Source: a virus (taxonomy: Duplodnaviria > Caudoviricetes). From it: DNA of 64,000 bases. Within the stretch, counting starts at the first letter, position 1. Each line of letters opens with the position of its first letter. The stretch is from the IMG/VR virus record IMGVR_UViG_3300042554_001750; one strand, given 5' to 3'. A program made the translations under genes and the position numbers. Below, piece by piece: positions 23,364 to 36,556 of the stretch. Under the pieces are notes generated by a model. The model had not been told where the DNA came from and made no database searches. It saw only the letters and a program-made list of their open reading frames with translations.

Positions 23364-23909
23364 ATGAAAACAATCGGTGATAAGGTAACAGAATTTGCAA
23401 TTACAGGTGTTAAGCCTGGTGCACTAACACCAGACAATGCTTTTGAAACTATTACGGAAAAGAGTTTTGAAGGCAAGTGGAAAGTAATCGTTTACTATCC
23501 TAAGGATTTTACTTTCGTATGTCCTACAGAAATCGTGGCATATGACAAGTTGGCAAAGGACTTTGCTGACCGTGATGCTATTCTATTGACAGGCAGTACC
23601 GACAATGAATTCTGTAAGTTGGCATGGCGTAATGCTCATGAGGATCTAAAGAAAACCAACAGTTGGATGTTTGCTGATGTTGCCCGTGGCGAGCTATCAT
23701 TAGCAGAACAACTAGGCATTTTCTATGCTCCTGCTGGTGCCGCACTTCGTGCTACATTCATTGTTGATCCTGACAATGTTATTCAGCATGTCACAGTAAA
23801 CAACTTAGATGTTGGTCGTAACCCAGACGAAACATTGCGTATTCTTGACGCATTGCAGACTGGCGAACTATGCCCATGCAGTCGCCCAATCGGTGGTGAG
23901 ACTCTATAA
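23364..23909 (+). CDS. ahpC: Alkyl hydroperoxide reductase C (2-Cys peroxiredoxin)
   Basis: YPKDFTFVCPTE, RATFIVDP, GELCPC. Confidence 0.95.
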   Translation: MKTIGDKVTEFAITGVKPGALTPDNAFETITEKSFEGKWKVIVYYPKDFTFVCPTEIVAYDKLAKDFADRDAILLTGSTDNEFCKLAWRNAHEDLKKTNSWMFADVARGELSLAEQLGIFYAPAGAALRATFIVDPDNVIQHVTVNNLDVGRNPDETLRILDALQTGELCPCSRPIGGETL

Positions 23910-24571
23910 TGTTAGAAACTGTTTCTGATTTATTTCAAGAAGCATACAAGCGGAACTGGATTACTGCCCGCGACGGCAACGCCAGTATCCGCTGGCATGA
24001 TAGAAATCATATGTACATCACGCCCAGTGGTATTAGAAAACAATATCTTCAACCAGAAATGTTTAAAAAGATTAAGTTTTCTACGGTTATGAGTGCAGTA
24101 CCTCCATTTCTTACTGATATTTGGGAAGAAATGGAATACACTGATATAAGTAAAAATCTAAAGCCTAGTGGTGAGTTACCAATGCATTTTGCATTGCAAG
24201 GTAAGATTGATACTGAAGTTAGGGTAGTATTGCATTTCCATCCAACATATACTGTAGCAGCCATGCATGCTGGTATACAACTGCCTGACTTGTTAAAAGA
24301 GTTTCCGGAACTAAGTAGGTATACCAGTGTTGCACCCAATGTTCCGTTGCTCCCACCTATTACACAGGATTTGGCTGATGCTTGTGTTAAAAATTTAGAA
24401 TTTGATAAAGCAACAGGTAAAGTTCCCTATAATATTGTGGGAATGGACAGGCATGGAGTGGTGGCAGTTGACACTAGCCCATGGCGTGCATTTGAGCACA
24501 TAGAAAGGCTAGAACATATTTGTAAAATAGTTTTATCAAGTAAAGGATATAAAAATGACAATAACACTTAA
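23909..24571 (+). CDS. Class II aldolase/adducin-family protein
   Basis: DGNAS, ITPSG, KPSGE..MH, VLHFHP, HGVVA metal ligands. Confidence 0.88.
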   Translation: MLETVSDLFQEAYKRNWITARDGNASIRWHDRNHMYITPSGIRKQYLQPEMFKKIKFSTVMSAVPPFLTDIWEEMEYTDISKNLKPSGELPMHFALQGKIDTEVRVVLHFHPTYTVAAMHAGIQLPDLLKEFPELSRYTSVAPNVPLLPPITQDLADACVKNLEFDKATGKVPYNIVGMDRHGVVAVDTSPWRAFEHIERLEHICKIVLSSKGYKNDNNT

Positions 24572-25091
24572 TGGTAATTGGATAGAGCAAGTCAAAGAAT
24601 CTATCCCTGATCATGCAAAAGATATTAGATTGAATTTAGATTCTGCAATCAATCGCAGTCCCCTAGATCCAGTAGATACTCATGCTGTAGCTTATGTGTC
24701 AGCATTGGCAGCAGGCAACGGTGGATTAGCATTTGAGATTGAACACAATAGCCCATTGTTTACCGCAGAAAAAGAGCGCGAAGCTGCAAAGACTGCGGCT
24801 GCATTAATGGGTATGAACAATGTGTATTATCCATTTGTTGAAATGACACAAGATCCTGAACTAAAAGGATTGCCACCTGGTTTAAGAATGCAAGCATACG
24901 CAACACACGGTGGTGTCACCAAGAAGCAATTTGAAATGTACGCATTGGCTGCTAGTATTGTGGGCAAATGCCACTTTTGTGTAAAGAATCATTATGATAC
25001 ACTAAAGAAAGAAGGCATGACTGTACAAGAATTACAACACGTGGGCAAGGTTGCAAGCATTGTTAACAGCATTGGCAAGATTGCAATTTAA
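24555..25091 (+). CDS. ahpD: Alkyl hydroperoxide reductase D
   Basis: PDHAKDIRLNL, MGMNNVYY, EMYALAASIVGKCHFCVKNH. Confidence 0.92.
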   Translation: MTITLNGNWIEQVKESIPDHAKDIRLNLDSAINRSPLDPVDTHAVAYVSALAAGNGGLAFEIEHNSPLFTAEKEREAAKTAAALMGMNNVYYPFVEMTQDPELKGLPPGLRMQAYATHGGVTKKQFEMYALAASIVGKCHFCVKNHYDTLKKEGMTVQELQHVGKVASIVNSIGKIAI

Positions 25092-25103
25092 TTACCCAAA
25101 AAG

Positions 25104-25132
25104 TTGACAACTATTCAAAATACAGTTACACT
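25104..25132 (+). promoter_or_regulatory. sigma70-type promoter at the entrance of the tRNA region
   Basis: TTGACA-17 nt-TACACT; followed by hairpin AAAACACGCA/TGCGTGTTTT and a TAAATA at 25183. Confidence 0.8.
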
Positions 25133-25196
25133 CATAAAAATTGAAAAAACACGCATTATTTGCGTGTTTTGTTAACCAGGAATAAATAAACTTACT

Positions 25197-25331
25197 ATGA
25201 ATAACTTTACTTGTAACATACTGAAACATCAGGCATCATGGTCTATAGCCATGATTACCTTTGCGCCAGTATATCCTACAAGTATCCGTGGCTCAGAGTA
25301 TAATCAAAGAGGGCTCCCGGGGACTAGGTAA
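25197..25331 (+). CDS. Putative attenuator leader peptide (44 aa)
   Basis: MNNFTCNILKHQASWSIAMITFAPVYPTSIRGSEYNQRGLPGTR; stop lies inside a hairpin that competes with the terminator. Confidence 0.6.
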   Translation: MNNFTCNILKHQASWSIAMITFAPVYPTSIRGSEYNQRGLPGTR

Positions 25332-25366
25332 AGTCTAAGTAGTAAAGATTTATCAAGCCCCTGGGA
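25315..25366 (+). promoter_or_regulatory. Putative antiterminator hairpin
   Basis: TCCCGGGG(A)CTAGGTAAAGTCT pairs with AGATTTATCAAG(C)CCCTGGGA, about 19 bp with two mismatches and one bulge. Confidence 0.6.
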
Positions 25367-25398
25367 AACTAAAAAGTCCCAGGGGTTCTTACTTTATT
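25356..25398 (+). terminator. Intrinsic terminator (attenuator)
   Basis: CCCCTGGGA/TCCCAGGGG stem with a 10-nt loop, followed by TTCTTACTTTATTT. Confidence 0.7.
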
Positions 25399-25407
25399 TG
25401 ACAGAAA

Positions 25408-25569
25408 ATGGAAAAACAGATACAGTACGAAAAATTGAAATTTACAGATTGGTCAAGGCATGTGACATTGACACCCGAACAACGAAATAAATTGATTCAG
25501 GAAAAGATTGAACGAGCCAAGATTCAATATCTGGCTACGCAGAAGTTACCTTTAAAAGTAACTCAGTAG
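25408..25569 (+). CDS. Small hypothetical protein (53 aa)
   Basis: MEKQIQYEKLKFTDWSRHVTLTPEQRNKLIQEKIERAKIQYLATQKLPLKVTQ. Confidence 0.5.
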   Translation: MEKQIQYEKLKFTDWSRHVTLTPEQRNKLIQEKIERAKIQYLATQKLPLKVTQ

Positions 25570-25571
25570 CA

Positions 25572-25700
25572 AAGTGTGTGTAGGAAACGTGGTCCTGAGG
25601 CGCACTTAAAACATGTCTTAAACGGGCGGACTGAAGGATGGAGCTTCTCTTGTGAAGCAAAAAATCTCAGGCTAGGGTATAGCTCTAGCATAGCGTAGAA
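25572..25700 (+). ncRNA. Candidate structured RNA of unknown class
   Basis: AAGTGTG/CGCACTT, TAGGA/TCCTG, GCTTC/GAAGC and GCTAGGG/CTCTAGC hairpins; non-coding and GC-richer than flanks. Confidence 0.4.
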
Positions 25701-25702
25701 AT

Positions 25703-25785
25703 ACGCTATTCTATAATACATTGAAGAACAAAGCCCTATACTTTTGATGTATAGAACAGGCATTCAGTGTATTATAGAATAGCGT
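25703..25785 (+). ncRNA. Long-stem structured RNA 1
   Basis: 23-bp stem ACGCTATTCTATAATACATTGAA/TTCAGTGTATTATAGAATAGCGT enclosing a CTATAC/GTATAG hairpin. Confidence 0.6.
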
Positions 25786-25791
25786 TTCAGT

Positions 25792-25866
25792 TGGAGGTTC
25801 GCCAAGTGGTAAGGCCCCGGATTTTGATTCCGGTATGCATAGGTTCGAATCCTATACCTCCTGCCA
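25792..25866 (+). tRNA. tRNA-Gln(TTG)
   Basis: CCGGA-TTTTGAT-TCCGG; TTCGAAT T-loop; CCA encoded; U1:U72 mismatch. Confidence 0.92.
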
Positions 25867-25872
25867 AACATT

Positions 25873-25947
25873 GCCTCATTAGCTCAGTGGTAGAGCAATC
25901 GCTTGATAAGCGATAGGTCCGTGGATCGTTCCCACGATGAGGCACCA
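25873..25947 (+). tRNA. tRNA-Ile(GAT)
   Basis: ATCGC-TTGATAA-GCGAT; CCA. Confidence 0.92.
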
Positions 25948-25952
25948 GTTTT

Positions 25953-26016
25953 AGGATACTAACAGCAAATTTTATACATTAGACTTTTAATCTAAACCGT
26001 AAAAATGTATCCTGTT
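25953..26016 (+). ncRNA. ACAGCAA-family RNA 1 (Lys-UUU anticodon-arm mimic)
   Basis: AGGATAC/GTATCCT stem, TA-ACAGCAA, TTAGA-CTTTTAA-TCTAA hairpin, no T-arm, GTT tail. Confidence 0.65.
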
Positions 26017-26025
26017 ATTTTCAAT

Positions 26026-26101
26026 GGTGCTCTTAGTGTAGTGGTCTGCACACCATGTTGTGACCTTGGTAGTATGAGTTCAATCCTCATAGAGTACCCC
26101 A
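26026..26101 (+). tRNA. tRNA-His(GTG)
   Basis: G-1 encoded, C73; CCATG-TTGTGAC-CTTGG; CCA. Confidence 0.9.
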
Positions 26102-26119
26102 ATTATTAAGGAGATTAAA

Positions 26120-26215
26120 ATGAATTGGGAACAAATGTGCGAGACACACAAAGAAAGTATTCAAGCATGGGATAATCTTTGTGAGGTCTATAGGGGGTGC
26201 CTTTACGCACTCTGA
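26120..26215 (+). CDS. Small hypothetical protein (31 aa)
   Basis: AAGGAG SD; MNWEQMCETHKESIQAWDNLCEVYRGCLYAL. Confidence 0.45.
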   Translation: MNWEQMCETHKESIQAWDNLCEVYRGCLYAL

Positions 26216-26223
26216 GATTATAA

Positions 26224-26300
26224 GCATCCGTAACTCAGTGGATAAGAGTACTGTGCTACGAACGCAGGAGTCGGAGGTTCGAATCCTTCCGGATGCGCCA
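26224..26300 (+). tRNA. tRNA-Arg(ACG)
   Basis: CTGTG-CTACGAA-CGCAG; CCA. Confidence 0.93.
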
Positions 26301-26306
26301 GTTATG

Positions 26307-26381
26307 GCTGATGTAGCGTAGTGGTAGCGCACTATCTTGGTAAGATAGGGGTCATGAGTTCAATCCTCATCATCAGCACCA
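26307..26381 (+). tRNA. tRNA-Thr(GGT)
   Basis: CTATC-TTGGTAA-GATAG; CCA. Confidence 0.93.
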
Positions 26382-26392
26382 ATAAATAAAAC

Positions 26393-27022
26393 ATGCAATC
26401 AGTTCCTAGAATTTCTTTAGCATGTGGACCTGCTGATGATGTTAGAACATTTAATTTGAAATTACCTTTCTTACAAAGAAGAATTGGTGTTCTAGTCAGC
26501 GGCGGATTAGATAGTGCGTTGTTGTATTATTGTTTACGATTAATAGAAAATGAAAACTATACAGTAACGCCTTATACTATCACTAGAAATGATGGTTCTA
26601 GTACACATGCACAACAGGTAATTGATTGTGTGAATAATATTCTTAATAAAAAAACACAGACTACTACAATAGTTACTATATCTGAACAGAATAGCGAATT
26701 ACAAGTTTCTGCAGGTATGAGAGTATTATTCAATACTAATCATAATATATTTTATATTGGATTAATAGAAACATTATCAGAACATGCAATTGGAGTTCCG
26801 AAACCATGGACTCCCGTAGATAGTTTAAGGGTTAATTTTCCCTTTAAGAATTTAAATAAATCACATATTGTTGATTTAATTTATAAATTTGATATTACTG
26901 AATTATTAAACATTACACATAGTTGTGTTTATCCAACAGGTAGATGCAATGTGTGTAATAGATGCAACGAAAGACAATGGGCATTCACTAAATTAGGTTT
27001 AGTGGATCCCGGCACCAGTTAG
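26393..27022 (+). CDS. QueC-like PP-loop ATPase
   Basis: VLVSGGLDS PP-loop; P..NLNKSHIV; THSC...CNVCNRC zinc site. Confidence 0.78.
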   Translation: MQSVPRISLACGPADDVRTFNLKLPFLQRRIGVLVSGGLDSALLYYCLRLIENENYTVTPYTITRNDGSSTHAQQVIDCVNNILNKKTQTTTIVTISEQNSELQVSAGMRVLFNTNHNIFYIGLIETLSEHAIGVPKPWTPVDSLRVNFPFKNLNKSHIVDLIYKFDITELLNITHSCVYPTGRCNVCNRCNERQWAFTKLGLVDPGTS

Positions 27023-27086
27023 GGATACTTACAGAAAATACTAACCAAACGATAGGTCGTTGGGTCAATCCCACTACTGGACACCA
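27021..27086 (+). pseudogene. Chimeric remnant: 5' end of an ACAGCAA-type RNA fused to a tRNA 3' half
   Basis: GGATAC-TT-ACAGAAA, then a T-arm-like hairpin and ACTGGAC-ACCA with no matching 5' acceptor strand. Confidence 0.5.
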
Positions 27087-27102
27087 ACAGAAAGGAAATA
27101 TC

Positions 27103-27351
<249 letters not shown>

Positions 27352-27353
27352 AT

Positions 27354-27382
27354 TTGACATAAATTATATTTTGTGTTACACT
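27354..27382 (+). promoter_or_regulatory. sigma70-type promoter
   Basis: TTGACA-17-TACACT immediately before tRNA-Arg(TCG). Confidence 0.75.
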
Positions 27383-27383
27383 A

Positions 27384-27459
27384 GGGACATTAACTCAGTG
27401 GACAGAGTGCTTGGCTTCGAACCAAGTGGTCAGGGGTTCGAATCCTCTATGTCCCTCCA
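27384..27459 (+). tRNA. tRNA-Arg(TCG)
   Basis: CTTGG-CTTCGAA-CCAAG; CCA. Confidence 0.93.
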
Positions 27460-27508
27460 GTAAGGCTCTAAATAAATGTAGACAGGCATAAAGAAAGCGA
27501 GGTTTATA

Positions 27509-28069
27509 ATGGCTGTTCTAGCACTAGATATAAGTGGAGTTCCCCGGCAATGGATCTCTTACGATGATGCAATTACTTACCAAGCTAAAAATGCTGTGGC
27601 ATGGTCTATGGGAGAAGTTGTTGCAAGATATCGCGGTGGAATCCAGAATGACGGCACATTGAGTTATCTGGAAACGCCTAGTATCATTGCCATTAAGGGT
27701 CATGGATTTGATCCGTATAAGCATGCACAAGTCGCATTAAGTAACAGAACATTGTTTGGTCGTGACCGACATGTATGTGCATATTGCGGTGGGCATTTTG
27801 CTAACTATCATTATCTAAGCCGTGATCACATTCTGCCTAAGAGCCGTGGTGGTGAAAACACTTGGATGAATGTTGTTACCGCATGTAAAGAATGTAATGG
27901 AAAGAAAGGTAATAAGACGCTTAAGGAAGCCCGTATGGAACTTCTATACGCACCTTATGTGCCTAATCACTTTGAAAACATGATTCTACAGAATCGCAAT
28001 ATTATTGCAGATCAGATGGAGTATCTATTGACAGGTGTTCCTAAGCATAGTAGAATTTTGAAAAATTAG
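27509..28069 (+). CDS. HNH endonuclease
   Basis: RDRHVCAYCG, RDHILPKSRGG.NTW.NVVTACKECNGKK. Confidence 0.92.
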   Translation: MAVLALDISGVPRQWISYDDAITYQAKNAVAWSMGEVVARYRGGIQNDGTLSYLETPSIIAIKGHGFDPYKHAQVALSNRTLFGRDRHVCAYCGGHFANYHYLSRDHILPKSRGGENTWMNVVTACKECNGKKGNKTLKEARMELLYAPYVPNHFENMILQNRNIIADQMEYLLTGVPKHSRILKN

Positions 28070-28081
28070 GATAACATGGGG

Positions 28082-28111
28082 TTGACAAAAAAATCAACTC
28101 TATGTTATACT
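28082..28111 (+). promoter_or_regulatory. sigma70-type promoter
   Basis: TTGACA-18-TATACT. Confidence 0.6.
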
Positions 28112-28127
28112 TAATAAATATTGAGAA

Positions 28128-28201
28128 GCCCTTGTAGTATATTGGTATTACAATTGCCTTGTAAGCATTAGAAGATGGTTCGATTCCATACTGGGGCACC
28201 A
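28128..28201 (+). tRNA. tRNA-Thr(TGT), several stem mismatches
   Basis: ATTGC-CTTGTAA-GCATT; CCA. Confidence 0.82.
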
Positions 28202-28207
28202 AACAAT

Positions 28208-28282
28208 TCCAGATTAGCTCAGAGGTAGAGCAGTTGACTGTTAATCAATTGGTCCCTGGTTCGATCCCAGGATCTGGAGCCA
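28208..28282 (+). tRNA. tRNA-Asn(GTT)
   Basis: GTTGA-CTGTTAA-TCAAT; CCA. Confidence 0.94.
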
Positions 28283-28296
28283 AATAATTTAATTGT

Positions 28297-28503
28297 ATGC
28301 TATTCAACGAACACGAAACATTTCAGTACCATTGCGATATAAACAAATATTGTATTAGTGGTATTGATTATTATGATGTACATTTTTACACAGTATATTT
28401 GGATGCTAAAAATCCAAATGAAAAGCATACAAAATTAAGAATGAATTTAACTCAATCTGAATTTAGTTCATTCTGTAAAATTTTTAAAAATTATCAGGAG
28501 TAG
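28297..28503 (+). CDS. Hypothetical protein
   Basis: 68-aa ORF directly before the SpeD-like gene. Confidence 0.6.
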   Translation: MLFNEHETFQYHCDINKYCISGIDYYDVHFYTVYLDAKNPNEKHTKLRMNLTQSEFSSFCKIFKNYQE

Positions 28504-28504
28504 T

Positions 28505-28867
28505 ATGTCACATTGGGGTTATCATTTAATGCTTGATTGCAGTGGATGCAATACAGGTATCGCTAGTAAAGACACAATCTATAATTTTGTCAAAGATTTA
28601 GTTAAGCGTATAGATATGGTTTCACACGGTGAACCTATTATTGAATATTTGTTACCCGGAGATCCTAAACAAGGATATAGTCTATTACAATTGATTACTA
28701 CTTCCAACATTAGTGCTCATTTTATGGAATTGGATGGCACTGCATATTTTGATATTTTTAGTTGTAAACCTTTTGACATTGAAACTGCAAAAAATATAGT
28801 TTCAGAATATTTTAGTCCAAAAAAAATGAGAGTAAACTTTATTACTCGCCACGCCGATATAGATTGA
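28505..28867 (+). CDS. speD: S-adenosylmethionine decarboxylase-like proenzyme (pyruvoyl)
   Basis: WGYHLMLDCSGC, GYS..QLITTSNISAHF, YFDIFSCKPFD. Confidence 0.85.
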   Translation: MSHWGYHLMLDCSGCNTGIASKDTIYNFVKDLVKRIDMVSHGEPIIEYLLPGDPKQGYSLLQLITTSNISAHFMELDGTAYFDIFSCKPFDIETAKNIVSEYFSPKKMRVNFITRHADID

Positions 28868-28901
28868 CTAATAATCACTAGTGTAGTAAAGTACACACTT
28901 A

Positions 28902-28979
28902 CTGGCGTTAGCTCAGTTGGATAGTAGCAACAGCCTTCTAAGCTGTAGGTCAGGGGTTCGAATCCCTTACGCCAGGCCA
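28902..28979 (+). tRNA. tRNA-Arg(TCT)
   Basis: ACAGC-CTTCTAA-GCTGT; CCA. Confidence 0.93.
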
Positions 28980-28985
28980 AATAAT

Positions 28986-29059
28986 ATCTCCTTAGTGTAA
29001 CGGCAGCATACGGGTCTCCAAAACCCTTGGTGGGAGTTCGAATCTCTCAGGGGATGCCA
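28986..29059 (+). tRNA. tRNA-Trp(CCA)
   Basis: CGGGT-CTCCAAA-ACCCT; CCA. Confidence 0.9.
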
Positions 29060-29090
29060 AGAAAAGGTAAACAAAATTTTTAAAAAATGT

Positions 29091-29151
29091 TTGACAATAA
29101 ATCAGAACTGTTATATACTAGCATCTGTTGATTGATTAATGTTCTTTAAAA
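29091..29151 (+). promoter_or_regulatory. sigma70 promoter with boxA-like site
   Basis: TTGACA-17-TATACT (29091-29119); TGTTCTTTAAAA (29140-29151). Confidence 0.75.
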
Positions 29152-29167
29152 GTTAAGTAAGTTTTTT

Positions 29168-29193
29168 GCCCGGGTGGTGAAATAGGTAGACAC
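29168..29193 (+). pseudogene. 5' fragment of a tRNA-Leu gene
   Basis: GCCCGGG-TG-GTGAAATAGGTAGACAC (acceptor 5' strand and D-arm) stops abruptly before the HNH gene. Confidence 0.7.
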
Positions 29194-29244
29194 TATAATA
29201 ATTACTTTCTTTGTGTTTAGTATAAATACATTAAGGAGATTATT

Positions 29245-29703
29245 ATGATTGTTTTGACTGAATACATCAAACGGGACAGAAGTGTGCGTAGGGCACATTT
29301 GGATTTGTCTGAGTCATGCCTTGAAAGAGGCGGAAATTCTACTAATCATAAAGGTGTTCTCGCACAATTTTTAAATACAGATATTCCTTCTGGTAGAATT
29401 TTGCTTTGCCATGCTTGTCATAATGGAAAATGCTCAAACCCCAAACATTTGTATTGGGGAACGGACCGTGATAATCTTGAAGATGCTAAAGAAAATGGGA
29501 CTCATAAAAGTCCTTGGGATAACCTTGTTGAAAAACATGGTTATGAAAAAGCATGTCAGATAAACAGTATCAAAATGCAAAATAACACTAATGGCTCAGG
29601 AAATGCAGGTAAATCTAAATCAGAGGAACACAAGAAAAATATTTCACTAAACCGCAAGGGTGGTAAACCTAAAGGTTGGCGAAAAAACAAATCTAGTGTA
29701 TAA
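29245..29703 (+). mobile_element. His-Me finger (HNH-type) homing endonuclease with NUMOD3-like tail
   Basis: CHACHNGKCSNPKHLYWGT..DN; KSEEHKKNIS; late promoter TATAAATA at 29221. Confidence 0.82.
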
Positions 29704-29714
29704 TAAAGTTTGTT

Positions 29715-29799
29715 GCGAGTGTGACGTAAGTGGTAGCCGTAGGAGACTTAAAATCTCCCGCCGTTAGGCGTGCCGGTTCGAGTCCGGCCACTCGCACCA
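29715..29799 (+). tRNA. tRNA-Leu(TAA)
   Basis: GGAGA-CTTAAAA-TCTCC; long variable arm; CCA. Confidence 0.94.
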
Positions 29800-29919
29800 T
29801 ATTGAAGCACATTGTAAGCCATTGCCGATGATCAAGGCAGCGTAGGGTGGCAGAAAGTAGATAATCGGCCGATACAGCTACTGAACCGCCTAGATAGTAT
29901 AGTGTGTTTCAATATGGTG
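29795..29919 (+). ncRNA. Long-stem structured RNA 2 (overlaps the tRNA-Leu ACCA)
   Basis: 19-bp CACCATATTGAAGCACATT/AGTGTGTTTCAATATGGTG enclosing TGCC/GGCA and a multi-segment TAGGGTGG...CCGCCTA arm. Confidence 0.65.
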
Positions 29920-29924
29920 ATTTA

Positions 29925-30001
29925 GGGCCTATAGCACAATTGGTTAGTGCAAACGACTCATAATCGTTAGGTTACAGGTTCGAGTCCTGTTGGGCCCACC
30001 A
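29925..30001 (+). tRNA. tRNA(CAT), probably Ile2
   Basis: AACGA-CTCATAA-TCGTT; GGGCCTA acceptor typical of Ile2; CCA. Confidence 0.85.
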
Positions 30002-30010
30002 TTTAATTTT

Positions 30011-30102
30011 GGAGCGTTGACCGAGAGGCTGAAGGTAGCGGTTTGCTAAACCGTCCACGTACTAAAATACGTGCATAGGTTCGAATCCTATACGCTCCGC
30101 CA
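30011..30102 (+). tRNA. tRNA-Ser(GCT)
   Basis: GCGGT-TTGCTAA-ACCGT; long variable arm; G73; CCA. Confidence 0.94.
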
Positions 30103-30113
30103 AAGGACATAAT

Positions 30114-30476
30114 ATGCACTTTACTATTCCTGAAGAATATATTACTGATGTTACAGTTAGGCATGAATACGATTATGTTAAAGATCGTAACAATCCTACA
30201 CATGAAGACCTTATCAAAATCCTTAAGGGATATGATAAAGGATATAGTATCAGTAGCAAAGACCACGATGAGTTTACTAAATTGCGTAACCAACTTGAAA
30301 GTGAAGGTTACATTAAGTGTGAGCGTGGTTGGTGGAATGGTGATCGTGTATTAAAGCCGTTCTATTTGAATGAATGGAAGTTTAAAAAGAATCATAAGTT
30401 TCCTTGCGCGGCAGCAATGCGTACAGGTATTGACTGTGCTAGGAAATTTGGATGGAAAAGTATTTCAAGTTTATAA
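30114..30476 (+). CDS. Hypothetical protein
   Basis: AAGGA SD; 120-aa ORF. Confidence 0.72.
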   Translation: MHFTIPEEYITDVTVRHEYDYVKDRNNPTHEDLIKILKGYDKGYSISSKDHDEFTKLRNQLESEGYIKCERGWWNGDRVLKPFYLNEWKFKKNHKFPCAAAMRTGIDCARKFGWKSISSL

Positions 30477-30489
30477 CAGAAAGGTAAAA

Positions 30490-30663
30490 ATGAAACCTAC
30501 TTCAACTTTTAAATTGCCCAAGTCTACTAAGATGTTACTAGATAATATCTTGGATCCGCATCTCCGCGGATCAATGCGTAGAGATTATATTAAGGCAATT
30601 TTAGAAAATCAAGTAAAAGCGAAATCTAATAAAAAGGATCGCAATCAAACTAACGATGAATAA
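30490..30663 (+). CDS. Small basic hypothetical protein
   Basis: AAGG SD before ATG 30490; MKPTSTFKLPKSTK. Confidence 0.6.
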   Translation: MKPTSTFKLPKSTKMLLDNILDPHLRGSMRRDYIKAILENQVKAKSNKKDRNQTNDE

Positions 30664-30668
30664 TTAAT

Positions 30669-30753
30669 GTATCGGTGGCAGAGTGGTTGAATGCAACGGA
30701 TTGCAAATCCGTACCGTATAGGCGCGTCGGTTCGAATCCGACCCGATACTCCA
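30669..30753 (+). tRNA. tRNA-Cys(GCA) with class II (long variable arm) scaffold
   Basis: ACGGA-TTGCAAA-TCCGT; 13-nt variable region ACCGTATAGGCGC; U73; CCA. Confidence 0.85.
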
Positions 30754-30758
30754 TTAAT

Positions 30759-30848
30759 GGAAGCGTGGTAGAGCGGTTGAATACACTGGTCTTGAAAACC
30801 AGCGAACATGAAAGTGTTCCGTGAGTTCGAATCTCACCGCTTCCGCCA
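30759..30848 (+). tRNA. tRNA-Ser(TGA)
   Basis: CTGGT-CTTGAAA-ACCAG; long variable arm; CCA. Confidence 0.94.
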
Positions 30849-30863
30849 ACAAAGGAGTCTAAT

Positions 30864-31442
30864 ATGCCCAGCGTGTTTTTAGTAAGTGATACTCACTTCG
30901 GTCACGCCGGAGTGTGTAGATTTTTGCGTGATGATGGAACCAAACTGCGTCCCTGGGATGACCCCAATGAAATGGACGAAGAAATGGTCAAGCGTTGGAA
31001 CGAAAGAGTAAAGCCTAACGATAAAGTTTATCATTTAGGTGATGTAGTAATTAATCGTAAAGCACTGAACATCCTTCGTAGATTGAACGGGGATAAGGTG
31101 CTTATCAAAGGTAACCACGATATTTTTAAGTTGGAAGATTATACTGACCACTTTAGAGATATTCGTGGCTATCATGTTATGAACGGTATGATTTTAAGTC
31201 ATATCCCTGTCCATGAAGAAAGTTTGGGCCGTTTTGGTGTAAACATTCACGGACATCTTCATGCAAACCGCGTTGTCAAAATCAAGCACAAGGGTGCTAC
31301 ACCTGAAGTTGATCACAGATATCATTGTGTTTGTGTGGAACAAACTGATTTTGCACCTATCTTATTTGAGGATGTGTTAAAGCGAATCAAAGAAGAAGGT
31401 GGCGAAGTTGGCTTTAAAAATGGTAATGGTGTTGTTATGTAA
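30864..31442 (+). CDS. Calcineurin-like metallophosphoesterase
   Basis: SDTHFGH, HLGD, GNHD, SHIP, HGHLH. Confidence 0.92.
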   Translation: MPSVFLVSDTHFGHAGVCRFLRDDGTKLRPWDDPNEMDEEMVKRWNERVKPNDKVYHLGDVVINRKALNILRRLNGDKVLIKGNHDIFKLEDYTDHFRDIRGYHVMNGMILSHIPVHEESLGRFGVNIHGHLHANRVVKIKHKGATPEVDHRYHCVCVEQTDFAPILFEDVLKRIKEEGGEVGFKNGNGVVM

Positions 31443-31458
31443 CTTTACCCAAAATTAC

Positions 31459-31487
31459 TTGTCAACAAGTGACTTTGGTGACATAAT
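31459..31487 (+). promoter_or_regulatory. sigma70-type promoter of the ACAGCAA-RNA/DUF2828 unit
   Basis: TTGTCA-17-CATAAT. Confidence 0.6.
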
Positions 31488-31511
31488 AACATCATTGAGT
31501 TAGAGATTATA

Positions 31512-31668
31512 AGGATCGGTACAGCAACATTTACTTTATAGTGAATGGTCTGGGCATAGTATGGTACATGCTGGAGGGACAACCCGTTGAAGGTGTGTAT
31601 TGAAATACTCCGGACGAACTCAGAGTGATGGCCTGAGTATAATAAAAGCAGTCAACAACGATCCTGTT
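31512..31668 (+). ncRNA. ACAGCAA-family RNA 2
   Basis: AGGATCG/CGATCCT stem, GT-ACAGCAA, CATTTAC/GTGAATG, GTCTGG/CCGGAC and ACTCAG/CTGAGT helices, GTT tail. Confidence 0.7.
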
Positions 31669-31676
31669 ATTTTGTT

Positions 31677-31872
31677 AGGATGATGACAGCAATCTAAAAC
31701 AATACTGCCTTGTTTTAGGGAAACCTAAACAGCCTGTTGGGGTTAGCCAACTTTGTGTCTAGTCAAGATACTAGGATCGGTCATGTACGATACATGATAG
31801 GCTTGTGGTACAAACTCCCTTAGTGGTAGGGGGCAAGCAGAAATATAAAATACCCGTATCGGTCATCCTGTT
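31677..31872 (+). ncRNA. ACAGCAA-family RNA 3
   Basis: AGGATGA/TCATCCT stem, TG-ACAGCAA, 10-bp TCTAAAACAA/TTGTTTTAGG, GTTGG/CCAAC, CTAGT/ACTAG, TCATGTA/TACATGA and CTCCCT/AGGGGG hairpins, GTT tail. Confidence 0.7.
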
Positions 31873-31880
31873 AGAATTAG

Positions 31881-31936
31881 TGAATGCTAACAGCAACTTT
31901 TTATTCAAACTTGAAAATTGAAATAAAACGCATTCA
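31881..31936 (+). ncRNA. ACAGCAA-family RNA 4 (abuts the DUF2828 RBS)
   Basis: TGAATGC/GCATTCA stem, TA-ACAGCAA, TTCAA/TTGAA hairpin around CTTGAAA. Confidence 0.65.
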
Positions 31937-31950
31937 GAAAGGAAAATGAA

Positions 31951-33366
31951 ATGAACGCATTTGTAAACGCAGTAGCGAACCAAGAAGCCCGTACCCAAAA
32001 TGGTATGAAGGCTCGTAAGTCTAGTGCTAACGCACTGGTTGATCTGTTCTATAACATCGGTGCAAGCCGTGGTAAGAACATTGTACCTGCTTTTACCTCT
32101 GCCTATGTCCAAGATAAGGACTTGGCATTGCGTATCGCATTGTGGGCCCGCGATGCCCGTAGTGGAGCAGGCGAACGTCAATTGTTCCGTGATATCTTGA
32201 CTCATTTGGAAAAGACTGATCCCGATGCGGCAGTCCGTCTGTTGAACAAGGTACCTGAACTTGGTCGTTTTGATGACTTGTTTGTTTTCAAGTCAAAGGA
32301 CATGAAGGCTAAGGCTTACACTCTGTTGGGTGATAACCTTCGTGTTAAGAATGGTCTTGCGGCTAAGTGGACTCCTCGTAAGGGCCCTGTTGCCCGCGAA
32401 ATCCGTGAGTTCTTCGGCATGAGTCCTAAGAACTACCGTAAGACTTTGGTCTCTATGACCAATGTCGTTGAATCACAAATGTGTGCCAACGACTGGGACA
32501 ACATCAACTTCAGCCATGTTCCCTCACAGGCTGCACGAATCTACAAGAAGGCGTTCAACCGTCATTCTGTTAAGTTCGCAGAGTATGTACAGAAGTTGGT
32601 TAGTGGAGATAAGACTGTCAAGGTTAACGCCGGCGCGATCTATCCTCATGATGTCCTGAAGGGTGTGATCAATGCATATGGTCGTGCGTCTTATGACAAG
32701 ACCGAGTTGGATCACATTGTTGCGCAATGGGATGCATTGCCTAACTATGTTGGTGATGCTAACATCATGCCGCTTGTTGACGTTAGTGGTTCTATGACTT
32801 GCCCTGCAGGTAAGAACACTAACGTTCGTTGCTTGGATGTTTCAGTCTCATTGGGATTGTACTTGGCTGATAAGAACAAGGGTGCGTTCCACGGAACCTT
32901 CTTGACTTTCAGCGAAAAGCCTGAATTGATGACCCTAAAGGGTAACATCGTTCAAAAGGCTGATCAAATGATCAAGTCAACTTGGGGCATGAGTACCAAT
33001 CTACATGCGGCTTTTGACAAGATCCTTAGCACCGCAGTTAAGAATTCTGTTCCTAACAGCGATATGCCAAAGATGTTGTTGATCCTTAGCGATATGCAGT
33101 TCAACCAATGCGTCCGTCATGATGACTCAGCAATGGAAATGATTGAACGCAAGTATCGTGACGCAGGCTACGAAATGCCAGCAGTGGTTTTTTGGAACTT
33201 GAACAGTAGCGACAACGTTCCTGTCAAGTCAGACAAGAGTGGTGCGGCACTTGTGTCAGGGTTCAGCCCAAGCATCATGACTAGTCTGTTGTCAGCAGAC
33301 CCGCTGGAATTCACTCCAGAAGGTATGATGATGAAGACCATCATGGCAGATCGTTACGATTGCTAA
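31951..33366 (+). CDS. DUF2828-type protein (helical TROVE-like N-terminus and vWA C-terminus; Ro60-like layout)
   Basis: DLFY, RDARSGAGER..FR, PELGRFDDL, AAKWTPR, VPS.A, DVSGSM MIDAS, GMSTNL, SDMQF, VFWNL. Confidence 0.82.
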   Translation: MNAFVNAVANQEARTQNGMKARKSSANALVDLFYNIGASRGKNIVPAFTSAYVQDKDLALRIALWARDARSGAGERQLFRDILTHLEKTDPDAAVRLLNKVPELGRFDDLFVFKSKDMKAKAYTLLGDNLRVKNGLAAKWTPRKGPVAREIREFFGMSPKNYRKTLVSMTNVVESQMCANDWDNINFSHVPSQAARIYKKAFNRHSVKFAEYVQKLVSGDKTVKVNAGAIYPHDVLKGVINAYGRASYDKTELDHIVAQWDALPNYVGDANIMPLVDVSGSMTCPAGKNTNVRCLDVSVSLGLYLADKNKGAFHGTFLTFSEKPELMTLKGNIVQKADQMIKSTWGMSTNLHAAFDKILSTAVKNSVPNSDMPKMLLILSDMQFNQCVRHDDSAMEMIERKYRDAGYEMPAVVFWNLNSSDNVPVKSDKSGAALVSGFSPSIMTSLLSADPLEFTPEGMMMKTIMADRYDC

Positions 33367-33375
33367 TGGACTATA

Positions 33376-33409
33376 AAGTTATATCGGATTAATCCGATAT
33401 AACTTTTCT
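33376..33409 (+). terminator. Terminator after DUF2828
   Basis: Perfect 13-bp AAGTTATATCGGA/TCCGATATAACTT followed by TTCT. Confidence 0.7.
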
Positions 33410-33426
33410 AGGAGTTATAATTTAAA

Positions 33427-34032
33427 ATGTTTGAAAAATTACAATTAATAAATCCTCATCCTAGCACAGAGTCTATATATGTAGGTGATATTCCTGCTGA
33501 AATTTTTTCAGAAATACAAACTAAGGTCAGTAAACTTCAAAAAAATTTTTTTGCAGTGTCTAAACTAACTTCTATGAATAAAAGTTTAGTTGGTCAAATA
33601 GAAAACTCGGTAAGAATGACTCCTCTACCTAGTTTAGAATCTTTCTTAAAAAACTTCTTTAAAGAAAATATATCAACTAAAGACATTGAAATTCATAGTA
33701 ATTGGGTAAACTTTCAAAAGAAAACAGAATACAATCCCAATCATACTCATACCGGTGACTGGGCATATGTGATATGGGTTAAAATACCCTTTTCATTTAA
33801 TGAAGAGGACATAGCACCCAATTCTATTCATTCAAGCACGAAAACTAATGGAAGATTTGAATTATCCTACATAAATGAAAATCTAGAAGTTACTTCAAAA
33901 AAGCTTGAAGTTGATTCAAAATTTGAAGGAAAATTTATTTTATTCAGATCCAATACACGGCATTGTGTATATCCATTCTATACCTCAGATGACTATAGAA
34001 TTTCTATGGCAGGAAATATTATATTTGTATAA
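33427..34032 (+). CDS. Putative 2OG-Fe(II) oxygenase
   Basis: WVNFQ...YNPNHTH, YVIW, ILFRS...HCVYPF, RISMAGNI. Confidence 0.78.
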   Translation: MFEKLQLINPHPSTESIYVGDIPAEIFSEIQTKVSKLQKNFFAVSKLTSMNKSLVGQIENSVRMTPLPSLESFLKNFFKENISTKDIEIHSNWVNFQKKTEYNPNHTHTGDWAYVIWVKIPFSFNEEDIAPNSIHSSTKTNGRFELSYINENLEVTSKKLEVDSKFEGKFILFRSNTRHCVYPFYTSDDYRISMAGNIIFV

Positions 34033-34040
34033 ATAAAATT

Positions 34041-34315
34041 GCAACTAGGTAAGTGTATAACGACACTTTAAACAAGATTGTGGACGCACATGATTCGGCC
34101 TAGTTCAACGATCACTCGGCTTACACTTTGCCGTAATCAAAAGTGGGTAGGCAGTTACCATATCTGCCGGGTACGCACGAACTTGACCTTAAGGCCCGCG
34201 ATGTATGGGCGACTTAAAAATATCGTGGGGCAGAACTTGACTGTCCATATGGAGACAAGTAGGACGGAACCTTACACCCATGTCGGGGCTTGGTAGTGCG
34301 AGTAGCCGACATTCT
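34041..34315 (+). ncRNA. Candidate structured RNA (~270 nt) after a late promoter
   Basis: TATAAATA at 34028; AACTAGG/CCTAGTT, AAGTGT/ACACTT, CACTTT/AAAGTG, GGCAG/CTGCC, CCGCGATGT/ATATCGTGG, GGGCAG/CTGTCC and ATGTCGG/CCGACAT helices. Confidence 0.55.
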
Positions 34316-34317
34316 TC

Positions 34318-34384
34318 TTGACAATAATTCCTACTTAGTATATAATAAGTGCATACGCTGAGAAATCGGCAATGCTCTTTAACA
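34318..34384 (+). promoter_or_regulatory. sigma70 promoter with boxB-like hairpin and rrn-consensus boxA
   Basis: TTGACA-17-TATAAT; GCTGA-GAAA-TCGGC (34357-34370); TGCTCTTTAACA (34373-34384). Confidence 0.85.
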
Positions 34385-34401
34385 GTTTATTGGTTTTATT
34401 T

Positions 34402-34478
34402 GGGACGTTAGCTCAGTTGGTAGCAGCACTCGGCTTTTAACCGATAGGTCATTGGTTCGAACCCAATACGTCCTACCA
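34402..34478 (+). tRNA. tRNA-Lys(TTT)
   Basis: CTCGG-CTTTTAA-CCGAT; CCA. Confidence 0.92.
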
Positions 34479-34587
34479 TATTAAAACACATTCAAGGCAA
34501 AGTACAAGCCTGGCAGAAGGTGCAGCCTTGCCCCGTATGGAGCAATGGTGGACGGTGCTACTCCGTCGAGTGTGTTTTAATATGGTA
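34474..34587 (+). ncRNA. Long-stem structured RNA 3 (overlaps the tRNA-Lys ACCA)
   Basis: TACCATATTAAAACACATTC/GAGTGTGTTTTAATATGGTA enclosing CAAGGC/GCCTTG and GACGG/CCGTC. Confidence 0.65.
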
Positions 34588-34592
34588 TCTTT

Positions 34593-34668
34593 GCTCGGTT
34601 CGTCTATCGGTTTAGGACGCTAGCCTTTCACGCTGGAAAGACGGGTTCGATTCCCGTACCGAGTACCA
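34593..34668 (+). tRNA. tRNA-Glu(TTC)
   Basis: CTAGC-CTTTCAC-GCTGG; CCA. Confidence 0.93.
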
Positions 34669-34682
34669 GTATTAAATACAGT

Positions 34683-34877
34683 ATGATTGTTGAAACCGTT
34701 AAAACTTATACTCATTGGGCCCGTGATAATATTGTTACCAAACAATATGTCACCGAAGTGGACAATAGCAATAAAAGAGTTTTAACAGTTATTGAAAATT
34801 CTTACATGCCCTACAGTATCAGAGGTGAGTTGCAAAAAGAAGATACTAAAGGTAAACATATTGATGTAAAAGTTTAA
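34683..34877 (+). CDS. Small hypothetical protein
   Basis: ATG 4 nt after TAAATA; no SD. Confidence 0.6.
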   Translation: MIVETVKTYTHWARDNIVTKQYVTEVDNSNKRVLTVIENSYMPYSIRGELQKEDTKGKHIDVKV

Positions 34878-34880
34878 AAC

Positions 34881-34965
34881 GGAGATGAAGCATCAATGGT
34901 GATGCAGTGGACTGTAAATCCGCCGCCTTATGGCACGACTGGTTCGATCCCAGTAATCTCCACCA
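34881..34965 (+). tRNA. tRNA-Tyr(GTA)
   Basis: GTGGA-CTGTAAA-TCCGC; variable arm; CCA. Confidence 0.93.
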
Positions 34966-34972
34966 AGATATT

Positions 34973-35049
34973 GCACCGTTAGATCAGTTGGTTAGATCGC
35001 ATGCCTGTCACGCATGAGGCCAGGGGTTCAAGTCCCCTACGGTGCGCCA
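34973..35049 (+). tRNA. tRNA-Asp(GTC)
   Basis: CATGC-CTGTCAC-GCATG; G73; CCA. Confidence 0.94.
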
Positions 35050-35053
35050 AATT

Positions 35054-35130
35054 GGTCGGGTATCTTAAGAGGAAGTAGAGCCTCCCTCATAAGGAGGAAT
35101 GTGGGATTTCGAGCGTCCCCCTGACCACCA
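35054..35130 (+). tRNA. tRNA(CAT), probably elongator Met, atypical D-arm
   Basis: CCTCC-CTCATAA-GGAGG; GGGAT-TTCGAGC-GTCCC; CCA. Confidence 0.8.
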
Positions 35131-35145
35131 GATAAATAATTTTGT

Positions 35146-35222
35146 GCGGGTATAGTGTTTAACGGTAGCACGGCAGCCTTCCAAGCTTTAAGAGAGGAGT
35201 TCGAATCTCCCTACCCGCTCCA
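35146..35222 (+). tRNA. tRNA-Gly(TCC)
   Basis: CTTCCAA loop; U73; CCA. Confidence 0.9.
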
Positions 35223-35223
35223 G

Positions 35224-35271
35224 TTGACAATATGTATGAAATCAAATATACTTCATACTTGTTCTTTAAGA
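35224..35271 (+). promoter_or_regulatory. sigma70 promoter with boxA-like site
   Basis: TTGACA-17-TATACT; TGTTCTTTAAGA (35260-35271). Confidence 0.7.
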
Positions 35272-35284
35272 TAAATAGTTTTTT

Positions 35285-35369
35285 GCCCTGGTGGTGTAAT
35301 TGGTAGCCACGCTGGTCTTAGAAGCCAGTGCTTAATCGCGTGTCGGTTCGAGTCCGACCTAGGGCACCA
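35285..35369 (+). tRNA. tRNA-Leu(TAG)
   Basis: CTGGT-CTTAGAA-GCCAG; variable arm; CCA. Confidence 0.94.
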
Positions 35370-35412
35370 CAATTTATTGGGAAATCACTTGCCTAGAGGA
35401 ATAAATACTTAT

Positions 35413-35967
35413 ATGAAAAGAGTTTATATAAGTGATATGCCCTGGGAAGAAATACAAAGGCACTACAACGAAGGAATGTCTTTGCGTGATTTACAGAAAA
35501 AGTTCAGAATTAGTTTTAAAACTTTTCAAAAAGCAAAAAAATTGAACTTATTTGTGCCTAGAGATTTATCATCAGCAATGAAAATAACTTTGATGATTAA
35601 CCCTAGAAATTACTCACATATAAGAAAGAACAGGTCAGCACTTAAAAATTATAGGGCTGATTGTACTTTTAAGTTTAACTTGTCAGATTATCCTGACGAA
35701 TTCAATTTTGAATTGATTGAAAGCTATGGTTGGTATAAACCCAAAAATAGGGGCGATAATATCAATGGTGTTAGCAGAGACCATGCAGTAAGTGTAAAAT
35801 ACGGGTTCGACAACAATTTACCTGCTGAACATTTGGCTCACCCTGCTAATTGTGTTTTAATGAGACACGGTGATAATGTGTCTAAATATAGCAAGATATC
35901 AATGTCTTATGAAGAATTGCTCAAACGCATTGAAGCATGGGACCAGAAATATGGGGGATTGGTATAG
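35413..35967 (+). mobile_element. HNH-type endonuclease with N-terminal HTH
   Basis: GMSLRDLQKKF HTH; SRDHAVS...HPANCVLM.H.DN; ATG 5 nt after TAAATA; stop inside tRNA-Ala. Confidence 0.75.
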
Positions 35968-36027
35968 TTGGGAACACGATGCCCTTGCAAGGCATAGTCA
36001 GCGGTTCGACCCCGCTATCCTCCACCA
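35953..36027 (+). tRNA. tRNA-Ala(TGC)
   Basis: ATGCC-CTTGCAA-GGCAT; G3:U70; CCA. Confidence 0.93.
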
Positions 36028-36033
36028 ATCAAT

Positions 36034-36109
36034 TGCGGCCGAGGGAGACAGTAACCCGCCAGTCTCATAAGCTGGAGATACCTGGTGCGACTCCAGGGGT
36101 TCGCAACCA
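36034..36109 (+). tRNA. tRNA(CAT), initiator-like but atypical
   Basis: TGCGGCC acceptor with one bulged nt on the 3' strand; CCAGT-CTCATAA-GCTGG; TGCGACT T-loop; CCA. Confidence 0.7.
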
Positions 36110-36152
36110 ATTAATATTTTTATTCTATATCTTATAGATAAGTAAGTTTACT

Positions 36153-36228
36153 CTCGGATTAGTATAGCCTGGTAGTATCCGTGCTTTGGGAGCATGTGGC
36201 GGGGGTTCAAATCCCTCATCCGAGACCA
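36153..36228 (+). tRNA. tRNA-Pro(TGG)
   Basis: CGTGC-TTTGGGA-GCATG; CCA. Confidence 0.93.
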
Positions 36229-36245
36229 TTTAAATTGAGGAAAAT

Positions 36246-36377
36246 ATGGCAGCAAAAAGTGAACAAAGAAAGAGTGTTGTAAAGCGTACTAGTCAAGGCG
36301 GTAGTAGCCCCAAGACCAGTTCAATGAATAAAACTGAAAAGCGTAGTTTCAAAAAGAATAGAGGACAAGGCAAATGA
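36246..36377 (+). CDS. Small basic protein (43 aa)
   Basis: GAGGA SD; MAAKSEQRKSVVKRTSQGG...KKNRGQGK. Confidence 0.6.
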   Translation: MAAKSEQRKSVVKRTSQGGSSPKTSSMNKTEKRSFKKNRGQGK

Positions 36378-36550
36378 GTGGCAAAGGTAGTAGTCCAAGA
36401 CCTTTTAGTGTGTCTCAAGAAGAATACGCAAATCGCTGGGACGCTATCTTTGGACGAGATTTAACTGATGATCTTAAAGTTAAGGAAGATGAACAAGCAT
36501 TGGACGAAGCTTTTGATCAAATAGAAACAGAGCAAGAAATTCGTAAATGA
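36374..36550 (+). CDS. Small acidic protein (58 aa)
   Basis: ATGA overlap; MSGKGSSPRPFSVSQEEYANRWDAIFG. Confidence 0.65.
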   Translation: MSGKGSSPRPFSVSQEEYANRWDAIFGRDLTDDLKVKEDEQALDEAFDQIETEQEIRK

Positions 36551-36556
36551 AATATT

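Follow-up and report, generated by a model that had tools for sequence, protein, structure and literature searches.

The trpL, hisL, leuL, thrL and pheL leaders, together with that of ilvGMEDA (Ile, Leu and Val codons), place a short translated open reading frame (ORF) behind a sigma70 promoter and ahead of an intrinsic terminator whose 5' arm can pair instead with the last part of the ORF, and the position of the ribosome is expected to choose the fold. Here we describe a unit of the same layout in a 64,000-nucleotide (nt) stretch of viral DNA (Duplodnaviria; Caudoviricetes; IMG/VR record IMGVR_UViG_3300042554_001750), which we call the window. The unit consists of a 44-codon leader ORF and two competing hairpins, and it precedes an array of phage transfer RNA (tRNA) genes. 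Like the trp/his-type attenuators, it combines a promoter-led and apparently translated ORF, an intrinsic terminator and a strand-sharing antiterminator within reach of the ribosome. In contrast to those leaders, in which codons for the regulating amino acid are clustered and which control biosynthetic enzymes, the window leader has no such run and contains nearly every amino acid, many of them once; no regulatory codon cluster was found in the leader family. The phage peptides further differ in being 42–59 amino acids (aa) long with conserved positions, and the protector (1:2) hairpin is only a candidate. An initial annotation of the window had described the locus as a leader-peptide attenuator and a candidate general sensor of translation capacity. 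Our comparison of the unit with its relatives favours, at somewhat better than even confidence, a ribosome-mediated transcription attenuator that heads the tRNA array and senses overall decoding or tRNA supply.

Leaders that respond to broader signals have also been described. In Bacillus subtilis, the 54-aa bmrB leader of bmrB-bmrCD controls a terminator/antiterminator pair and senses a general slowing of ribosomes (PMC4191407), and the mef/msr and ABC-F resistance leaders are translation-stress attenuators (PMC4335068). The bmrB-type leader resembles the window unit in its fairly long ORF and in the breadth of its signal, an analogy of architecture. These leaders respond to ribosomes stalled by antibiotics, the genes under their control encode transporters or ribosome protection, and no pan-amino-acid composition has been described for them; no sequence relation to the phage unit was seen, and no search aimed at one was made. 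T-box riboswitches likewise use a terminator/antiterminator switch and sense tRNA charging or availability at a translation-related gene, but they bind one uncharged tRNA directly and without translation, whereas the window unit would sense all tRNAs via the ribosome. TnaC, SecM and ErmCL share with it a conserved peptide upstream of a regulatory RNA element; in the known cases the effect is on Rho access or on translation, and no intrinsic terminator ahead of tRNA genes is involved. No sequence similarity between them and the phage peptide was found. An Rfam cmscan of 24000–38000 at E values up to 1 returned only tRNAs and chance hits, with nothing at 25100–25400 from the leader families, the T-box or any other family. 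With no Rfam match, no regulatory codon run and other controlled genes, the unit stands outside the trp/his/ilv and bmrB families. Full-text literature searches turned up neither a case of phage tRNA genes under leader-peptide attenuation nor a leader selected to contain all amino acids.

The reason why phages carry tRNA genes is debated; the proposals include codon-usage matching, replacement of degraded host tRNAs and evasion of anticodon nucleases. How phages regulate these genes is, to our knowledge, largely unknown. A conserved attenuator at the head of an array would link the state of the tRNA pool to phage tRNA synthesis, and this link would be direct and testable because the test peptide needs every amino acid. 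It would extend ribosome-mediated attenuation beyond one amino acid to the whole decoding apparatus, beyond biosynthetic operons to tRNA genes and beyond bacteria to viruses. An element of ~300 nt could then report global translation capacity or the activity of tRNA-targeting defences.

A conserved leader and competing hairpins ahead of tRNA genes

Homologues were sought with the AhpD-like neighbouring gene, the terminator and a 5' motif as seeds, after which a nucleotide profile collected the matches. This search yielded 59 distinct homologous units, all in uncultivated giant-phage contigs. The leader ORF of the window (25197–25331, + strand; 44 codons plus TAA) was found where the initial annotation had placed it, and its frame is open in all 59 homologues (42–59 codons, with identity down to ~29%). 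In every one of them, the ORF starts 7–8 nt past a TAAATA box and a terminator is present after the stop codon, mostly with a canonical T-tract. Because they are conserved, the features of the locus lie far beyond chance. The conserved residues of the peptide show synonymous codon change; by the comparative evidence, the leader ORF is translated. A profile of the peptide, searched against 1.84 billion representative proteins, recovered 58 clusters, all of them ORFs of 41–81 aa. Neither a relative nor a name for the peptide was found in Pfam, PHROGs, the PDB sequences, the ESM Atlas or a word-indexed protein search, and AlphaFold2 gave no confident fold from a 54-sequence alignment (predicted local distance difference test score, pLDDT, of 59; predicted template modelling score, pTM, of 0.16).

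The leader is preceded by a sigma70-type promoter, P1 (25104–25132, +; TTGACA-17-TACACT, 10/12 matches), which had been recognized earlier at the same position. Its predicted start lies near 25139, and the leader ORF begins 58 nt past it. Promoters with at least 10/12 matches occur ~57–108 nt upstream of the ATG in 52/59 relatives. On the other side of the unit, an array of 27 tRNA genes for all 20 amino acids, with interspersed ORFs and structured RNAs, extends over 25792–36872 (+; ARAGORN and Rfam). ARAGORN identified 26 of these genes at default settings, and tRNA-Tyr(GTA) at 34881–34965 was added by Rfam and a lower ARAGORN threshold; a weak Rfam tRNA match at 36035–36105 was not confirmed. 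Of the 46 loci whose downstream sequence spans 600 nt or more, 44 have tRNA genes on the same strand 182–1349 nt past the unit (median 461), and tRNA genes lie upstream in none of the 57 loci with at least 1 kilobase (kb) of upstream sequence. The tRNA array thus has the unit at its 5' boundary, in agreement with the earlier description of the unit as the gate of the array. A conserved short ORF before the arrays of related phages, which the initial annotation had put forward as a check, was recovered in the form of these 59 units, with the ORF and the competing stems kept.

Within the last five codons of the leader lies R1 (25315–25325, +; TCCCGGGG.CT), assigned by complementarity and folding as the 5' strand of a 19-base-pair (bp) antiterminator hairpin (25315–25366, +). 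The outer helix of this hairpin pairs 25315–25325 with 25356–25366, and the inner helix, which includes the stop codon, pairs 25327–25336 with 25346–25354; folding thus bears out the earlier claim of a hairpin built from the last codons and the stop. The antiterminator 3' strand (25356–25366), R2, is at the same time the 5' arm of a GC-rich intrinsic terminator (25356–25387, +; 11 bp with a 10-nt loop), in which it pairs with R3 (25377–25387). The two folds are mutually exclusive, as had been proposed. When both conformers of the window were folded, they were nearly isoenergetic (−21.0 kcal/mol for the antiterminator in RNA up to 25366 and −20.2 kcal/mol for the terminator); the family averages are −23.1 and −19.4 kcal/mol, respectively. 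The T-rich tail of the terminator (25388–25399, +) reads TTCTTACTTTATTT in the window and is imperfect, as cautioned in the initial annotation; most relatives have a canonical TTTTTTGTTT.

An alignment-free search for the best complement of R2 within the whole ORF located it at the ORF 3' end in ~52/59 units. R1 lies 15 to 3 nt before the stop codon in two subgroups and 40 to 18 nt before it in a subgroup with long peptides, where the helix has 11–12 bp and −23 kcal/mol. In a permutation test that anchored R1 by the peptide alignment and not by pairing, the R1–R2 duplexes of the units themselves had a mean of −15.96 kcal/mol, compared with −14.14 ± 0.23 kcal/mol for permuted partners (0/5000 as good). 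Compensatory changes comprise CCC/GGG to CTC/GAG (C:G to U:A) in relative L032 and separately in L037/L036, several replacements of G·U by A-U, and a series leading from GAAAC/GTTTC through GAAGC/GTTTC (L187) to GAAGC/GCTTC (L073, L116 and L063). The R1 string GCCCGGGGA is kept even between two subgroups that translate it differently, as G-P-G and A-R-G respectively, and this preservation of nucleotides across reading frames points to a constraint on R1 at the RNA level.

A plain MAFFT alignment (A1) shifted two subgroups by one base within R1 and thereby lowered the number of pairs counted; A1 was therefore replaced by the alignment-free tests and by a covariance-model alignment of all 59 units. 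In the latter, which is fitted to the model and leans towards structure, the hairpin is 75.9% paired (30–61% for slid partners), two-sided changes occur in 65 cells vs. 30 expected, and the covariation score is 0.197 vs. 0.122 for shuffles (0/500). One pair of the inner helix is CG in 18, AU in 17 and GC in 17 members of the family. For the terminator, 34 relatives gave 97.3% pairing, and compensatory changes were seen there as well. Judged by these comparisons, the terminator and the antiterminator, overlapped by the translated ORF, are real, conserved and covarying, and the attenuator geometry suggested for the window is supported by conservation, by the permuted partners and by covariation alike.

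A candidate protector strand is formed by the codons of the nearly invariant S-I-R-G (25281–25294, +), which may pair with 25311–25325 in a helix proposed by RNAalifold. This candidate 1:2 helix is 94.8% paired and shows no compensatory change, and its local hairpin has −10.7 kcal/mol. In the long-peptide subgroup (L020, L190, L191, L073 and others), the peptide has a C-terminal extension, F-I-E-G, encoded by the invariant TTCATAGAAGGAG. This string contains a strong Shine-Dalgarno-like AAGGAG just past R1, 12–20 nt before the stop codon, and is part of an extended antiterminator stem; the AAGGAG may be a pause site.

Amino acid composition of the leader peptides

The window peptide contains 19 of the 20 amino acids, with Asp missing, and has no run of a single residue, as originally noted. 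All 19 types occur within the first 35 codons. The tRNA set of the phage itself defines 27 decoding classes, and 24 of them are used in the window leader. The accompanying reservation that such a composition is only modestly unusual was appropriate for the window peptide alone (P ~0.04–0.05). Across the family, all 20 amino acids are present in 49 of the 54 distinct homologous peptides, which have ~45 residues, and all 20 already occur upstream of R1 in 47/51 (mean 41.6 residues). The chance of finding all 20 is 0.004 among 42-residue windows of this phage's own proteins, and ~0.4–1% as an overall estimate. Independent cluster representatives (≤50% identity) contain all 20 amino acids in 44/58 cases and 19 in 11/58.

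Cys, His and Trp are represented exactly once each in ~50/54 peptides. When one of them is lost at its usual position, it is usually found elsewhere, and in L116/L063 all three have swapped places. Shuffling residues within the columns of the alignment left 19.2 ± 3.5 all-20 peptides, compared with 90/108 observed, and shuffling within columns of individual clades left 45.5 ± 3.4 (a maximum of 56 in 2000 shuffles), compared with 76/88 observed. Since the column shuffles fall short even within clades, site-specific conservation does not explain the all-20 property. At the codon level, the leader ORFs use 25.7 of the 27 decoding classes, compared with 18.4 ± 2.1 in background 44-codon windows (P(≥25) = 0.001); random synonymous codons for the same peptides give 24.3 classes, which the real ORFs exceed in 54/54 cases. 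The composition of the leader family thus supports a sensor of decoding, and the frequency of all-20 peptides, the decoding classes and the shuffle nulls lend weight to the general-sensor idea. Strong selection for all 20 amino acids in ~45 residues would be an unusual and quantifiable signature that could be searched for in other genomes.

The peptide is also conserved in a position-specific manner: S29, I30 and R31 are retained in at least 90% of members, H11 and W15 are nearly invariant, and the S-I-R-G motif keeps a roughly constant distance of 8–9 codons to R1. A hungry-codon sensor for one tRNA was considered as well; it would be hard to discern, with conserved residues varying synonymously and the array covering all amino acids.

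Proposed mechanism and alternative readings

In the mechanism that we propose, host RNA polymerase would initiate at P1 and transcribe the short leader ORF. R1 and the stop-codon region could then pair with 25346–25366, giving the antiterminator that sequesters R2. A ribosome that translates fast would unwind or cover R1, and at the stop codon, with UAA in the A site, it would cover ~25311–25341 according to established footprint dimensions. This span takes in the whole 5' half of the antiterminator, so that R2 would be free to pair with R3 as the terminator and the P1 transcript would end near 25390–25398. A ribosome lagging or stalled within roughly the first 35 codons would leave R1 free, the antiterminator would form as soon as R2 is made, and the polymerase would go on to transcribe the small ORF and, beyond it, the structured RNAs and tRNA genes. 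The ribosome position would in this way choose the helix, with stalling as the signal and readthrough as the response. Because the leader holds essentially every amino acid and nearly every decoding class, a shortage of any single aminoacyl-tRNA would raise transcription of the array, whether its cause was a host pool mismatched to phage codons, anticodon nucleases of the host that cleave tRNAs, or starvation. The output would be the genes for the scarce tRNAs, and hence a homeostatic feedback on decoding capacity.

We consider it an even call whether the leader goes as far as being a purpose-built universal decoding test, that is, ~45 codons selected to need every amino acid and almost every phage-encoded tRNA, so that the loss of any tRNA would switch on the array. 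Such a leader would serve both counter-defence and homeostasis, as a circuit of a kind not yet described for tRNA genes, and the tRNA loss to which it responds could stem from host anticodon nucleases or from phage-induced host shut-off.

Entry to the array is not confined to P1. A second predicted promoter, P2 (25398–25426, +; TTGACA-17-TACAGT), is located directly past the terminator, and a strong P2-like promoter occurs 10–39 nt past the terminator in 40/59 relatives. Given this placement of P2, the switch would modulate P1-derived transcription and would not be the sole entry to the array. The other 19/59 relatives have no P2 and no sigma70-type promoter was found in them between the terminator and the first tRNAs, so readthrough would be required there; in six of them (L037, L028, L126, L207, L156 and L210), the first tRNA is only 175–345 nt away. 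In the window, P2 overlaps a 53-aa ORF (25408–25569, +) that is conserved in a subset of relatives and has no Pfam match. Its ATG (25408) falls within P2 itself, past the −35 box but ahead of the −10 box and of the predicted P2 start, and translation from this ATG would therefore need transcripts that read through the attenuator. In relatives, the ATG is even further upstream, and TTGACA-17-TAGAAT is kept as nucleotides in another frame. RNA data were available as contigs from eight lake metatranscriptome runs, with sparse coverage and possible DNA carry-over. A 218-nt contig among them is an exact match to 25410–25627 and begins 23 nt upstream of the predicted P2 start, a match that is indistinguishable from DNA carry-over.

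Several observations weigh against the attenuator. By its sequence, P2 is an independent entry to the array in the window and in the 40/59 relatives that have it. The metatranscriptome contigs are compatible both with 3' ends at the terminator and with their absence, and one contig from a relative bridges it. The U-tract of the window is weak. In the long-peptide subgroup, a terminating ribosome would cover only the inner antiterminator; a ribosome at the stop codon fits this arrangement less well, and R1 would have to be masked by steric exclusion or by ribosomes that come behind. Readthrough would be the default for untranslated transcripts if there is no protector helix, and the candidate 1:2 helix carries no compensatory support. 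The sole Shine-Dalgarno-like sequence, AGGA, belongs to the 5' motif and is ~15 nt from the ATG. The phage has no cultured relative. Finally, the conserved H, W and S-I-R-G suggest a further role at the peptide level (arrest or trans action) or an RNA constraint, and in view of this position-specific conservation a pure composition sensor is insufficient.

The last point leads to the possibility that the same RNA switch responds to specific arrest of the nascent peptide (H, W, P-T-S-I-R-G) on a ligand, a factor or a ribosome state, as in the TnaC, SecM and Erm leaders, and not to general tRNA supply. S29, I30 and R31 do combine their high conservation with synonymous changes, H11 and W15 hardly vary, and a ribosome stalled at S-I-R-G would, at the roughly constant spacing of 8–9 codons, leave R1 free. 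We nevertheless regard peptide arrest as unlikely: it leaves unexplained the presence of every amino acid and the reappearance of Cys, His and Trp elsewhere, the peptide has no similarity to known arrest peptides or other families, and the S-I-R-G codons may instead be constrained as RNA. There is a similarly small chance that the leader is an ordinary small phage gene whose peptide acts in trans, for instance on host translation, host tRNA machinery or a defence system, with R1:R2 tuning the formation or stability of the mRNA 3' end and P2 driving the array. A plain gene would have no role for a strand within the ORF that competes and covaries with the terminator and is kept across a change of frame, and an all-20 composition kept by compensation is not expected of a folded or binding peptide; the poor fold prediction, the third of relatives without P2 and the strict linkage to the array start also argue against it. 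In its favour, the ORF has both a promoter (P1) and a terminator and is complete as a unit, P2 comes immediately afterwards in 40/59 relatives, the peptide is conserved position by position, and trans-acting leader peptides such as peTrpL are known (PMC7298713).

A temporal switch, which we judge quite improbable, would make the array late: early P1 transcripts, with their 58-nt leader, would be translated and terminate, and late transcripts from the TAAATA box would be poorly translated, fold the antiterminator and read through. Such timing is compatible with the invariant TAAATA box 7–8 nt before the ATG, with the same arrangement before other genes of the window and with the prediction that untranslated RNA favours the antiterminator kinetically. 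However, an invariant AACCAGGAC upstream of TAAATA in the leader units is absent from other TAAATA sites, the pan-amino-acid composition would be unexplained, and the CTAAATA form of the box, found in most relatives, departs more from the consensus of T4 late promoters, TATAAATA. As for a chance coincidence of the ORF and the competing stems, the window alone might have allowed it, with one 19/20 peptide that is only mildly unusual (P ~0.04–0.05) and an imperfect U-tract, but the conservation in 59 homologues and the tests of structure and composition already contradict it, and we assign it a negligible probability.

Upstream genes, viral lineage and the 5' motif

Genes for a peroxiredoxin (AhpC/TSA), a class II aldolase-like protein and an AhpD/CMD-like protein lie in a row at 23364–25091 (+) and end just upstream of P1. 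The AhpD-like gene upstream of P1 is common to at least 54 viral contigs. The upstream neighbour of the unit differs between relatives, and at several loci the unit is found 2–3.5 kb beyond the AhpD gene. Between P1 and the leader ORF, the 5' untranslated region (5'UTR) contains a terminator-like hairpin (25141–25175, +; stem 25146–25152/25158–25164, extended by A/T runs and followed by a T-run), which may also be the end of the upstream AhpC/AhpD operon. It lies only ~7 nt past the predicted P1 start, and P1 transcripts must therefore pass it. The hairpin found here in relatives differs in sequence, and there is none where P1 is closer (L149, L017, L117 and L043); because it is absent from the latter, the unit does not need this hairpin.

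On the downstream side, a structured non-coding stretch of ~220 nt (25575–25790) stands directly before tRNA-Gln and is partly conserved in relatives; Rfam contains no family that matches it. In relatives that lack the 53-aa ORF (e.g., L037), the counterpart of this stretch immediately follows the terminator.

The DNA of the window was found in lake-water metagenomes, and the relatives of the unit are IMG/VR contigs of up to ~350 kb, which together indicate an uncultivated lineage of freshwater giant phages. Among GenBank phages, neither the DNA nor the peptide of the unit found a match.

Immediately ahead of the leader ORF, the units share a nearly invariant 5' motif, TTAACCAGGA(A/C)TAAATAAA, represented in the window by the 19-nt TTAACCAGGAATAAATAAA (25172–25190, +). 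The motif ends 7–8 nt before the ATG and includes the TAAATA box at 25183–25188, which the initial annotation had already listed. A 17-nt core, AACCAGGACTAAATAAA (AGGAATAAATA in the window), is more conserved across the 59 loci than the ORF behind it, and the motif forms the minimal 5'UTR of the unit. Its position and sequence make it probably an element of translation initiation and/or a T4-type late-promoter box; possible functions are ribosome loading, protein binding and late transcription initiation. Two further roles were considered and rejected. A general phage promoter is not supported, as the motif shows no enrichment in the window. As for pairing with R2 in place of R1, only two 5-bp blocks could do so, and the resemblance of the motif to R1 is confined to one subgroup.

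The combination of TAAATA, 3–10 nt and ATG, with no Shine-Dalgarno sequence between them, recurs ahead of several ORFs of the window, at 26383, 34673, 35402, 36637, 53265 and 58890 (+) and at 49493, 53233 and 63884 (−). This arrangement suggests T4-type late promoters that would give leaderless or near-leaderless mRNAs. The TAAATAAAAGACTATG before the gene for a 685-aa protein at 58903 is identical to a string in the leader units of relatives.

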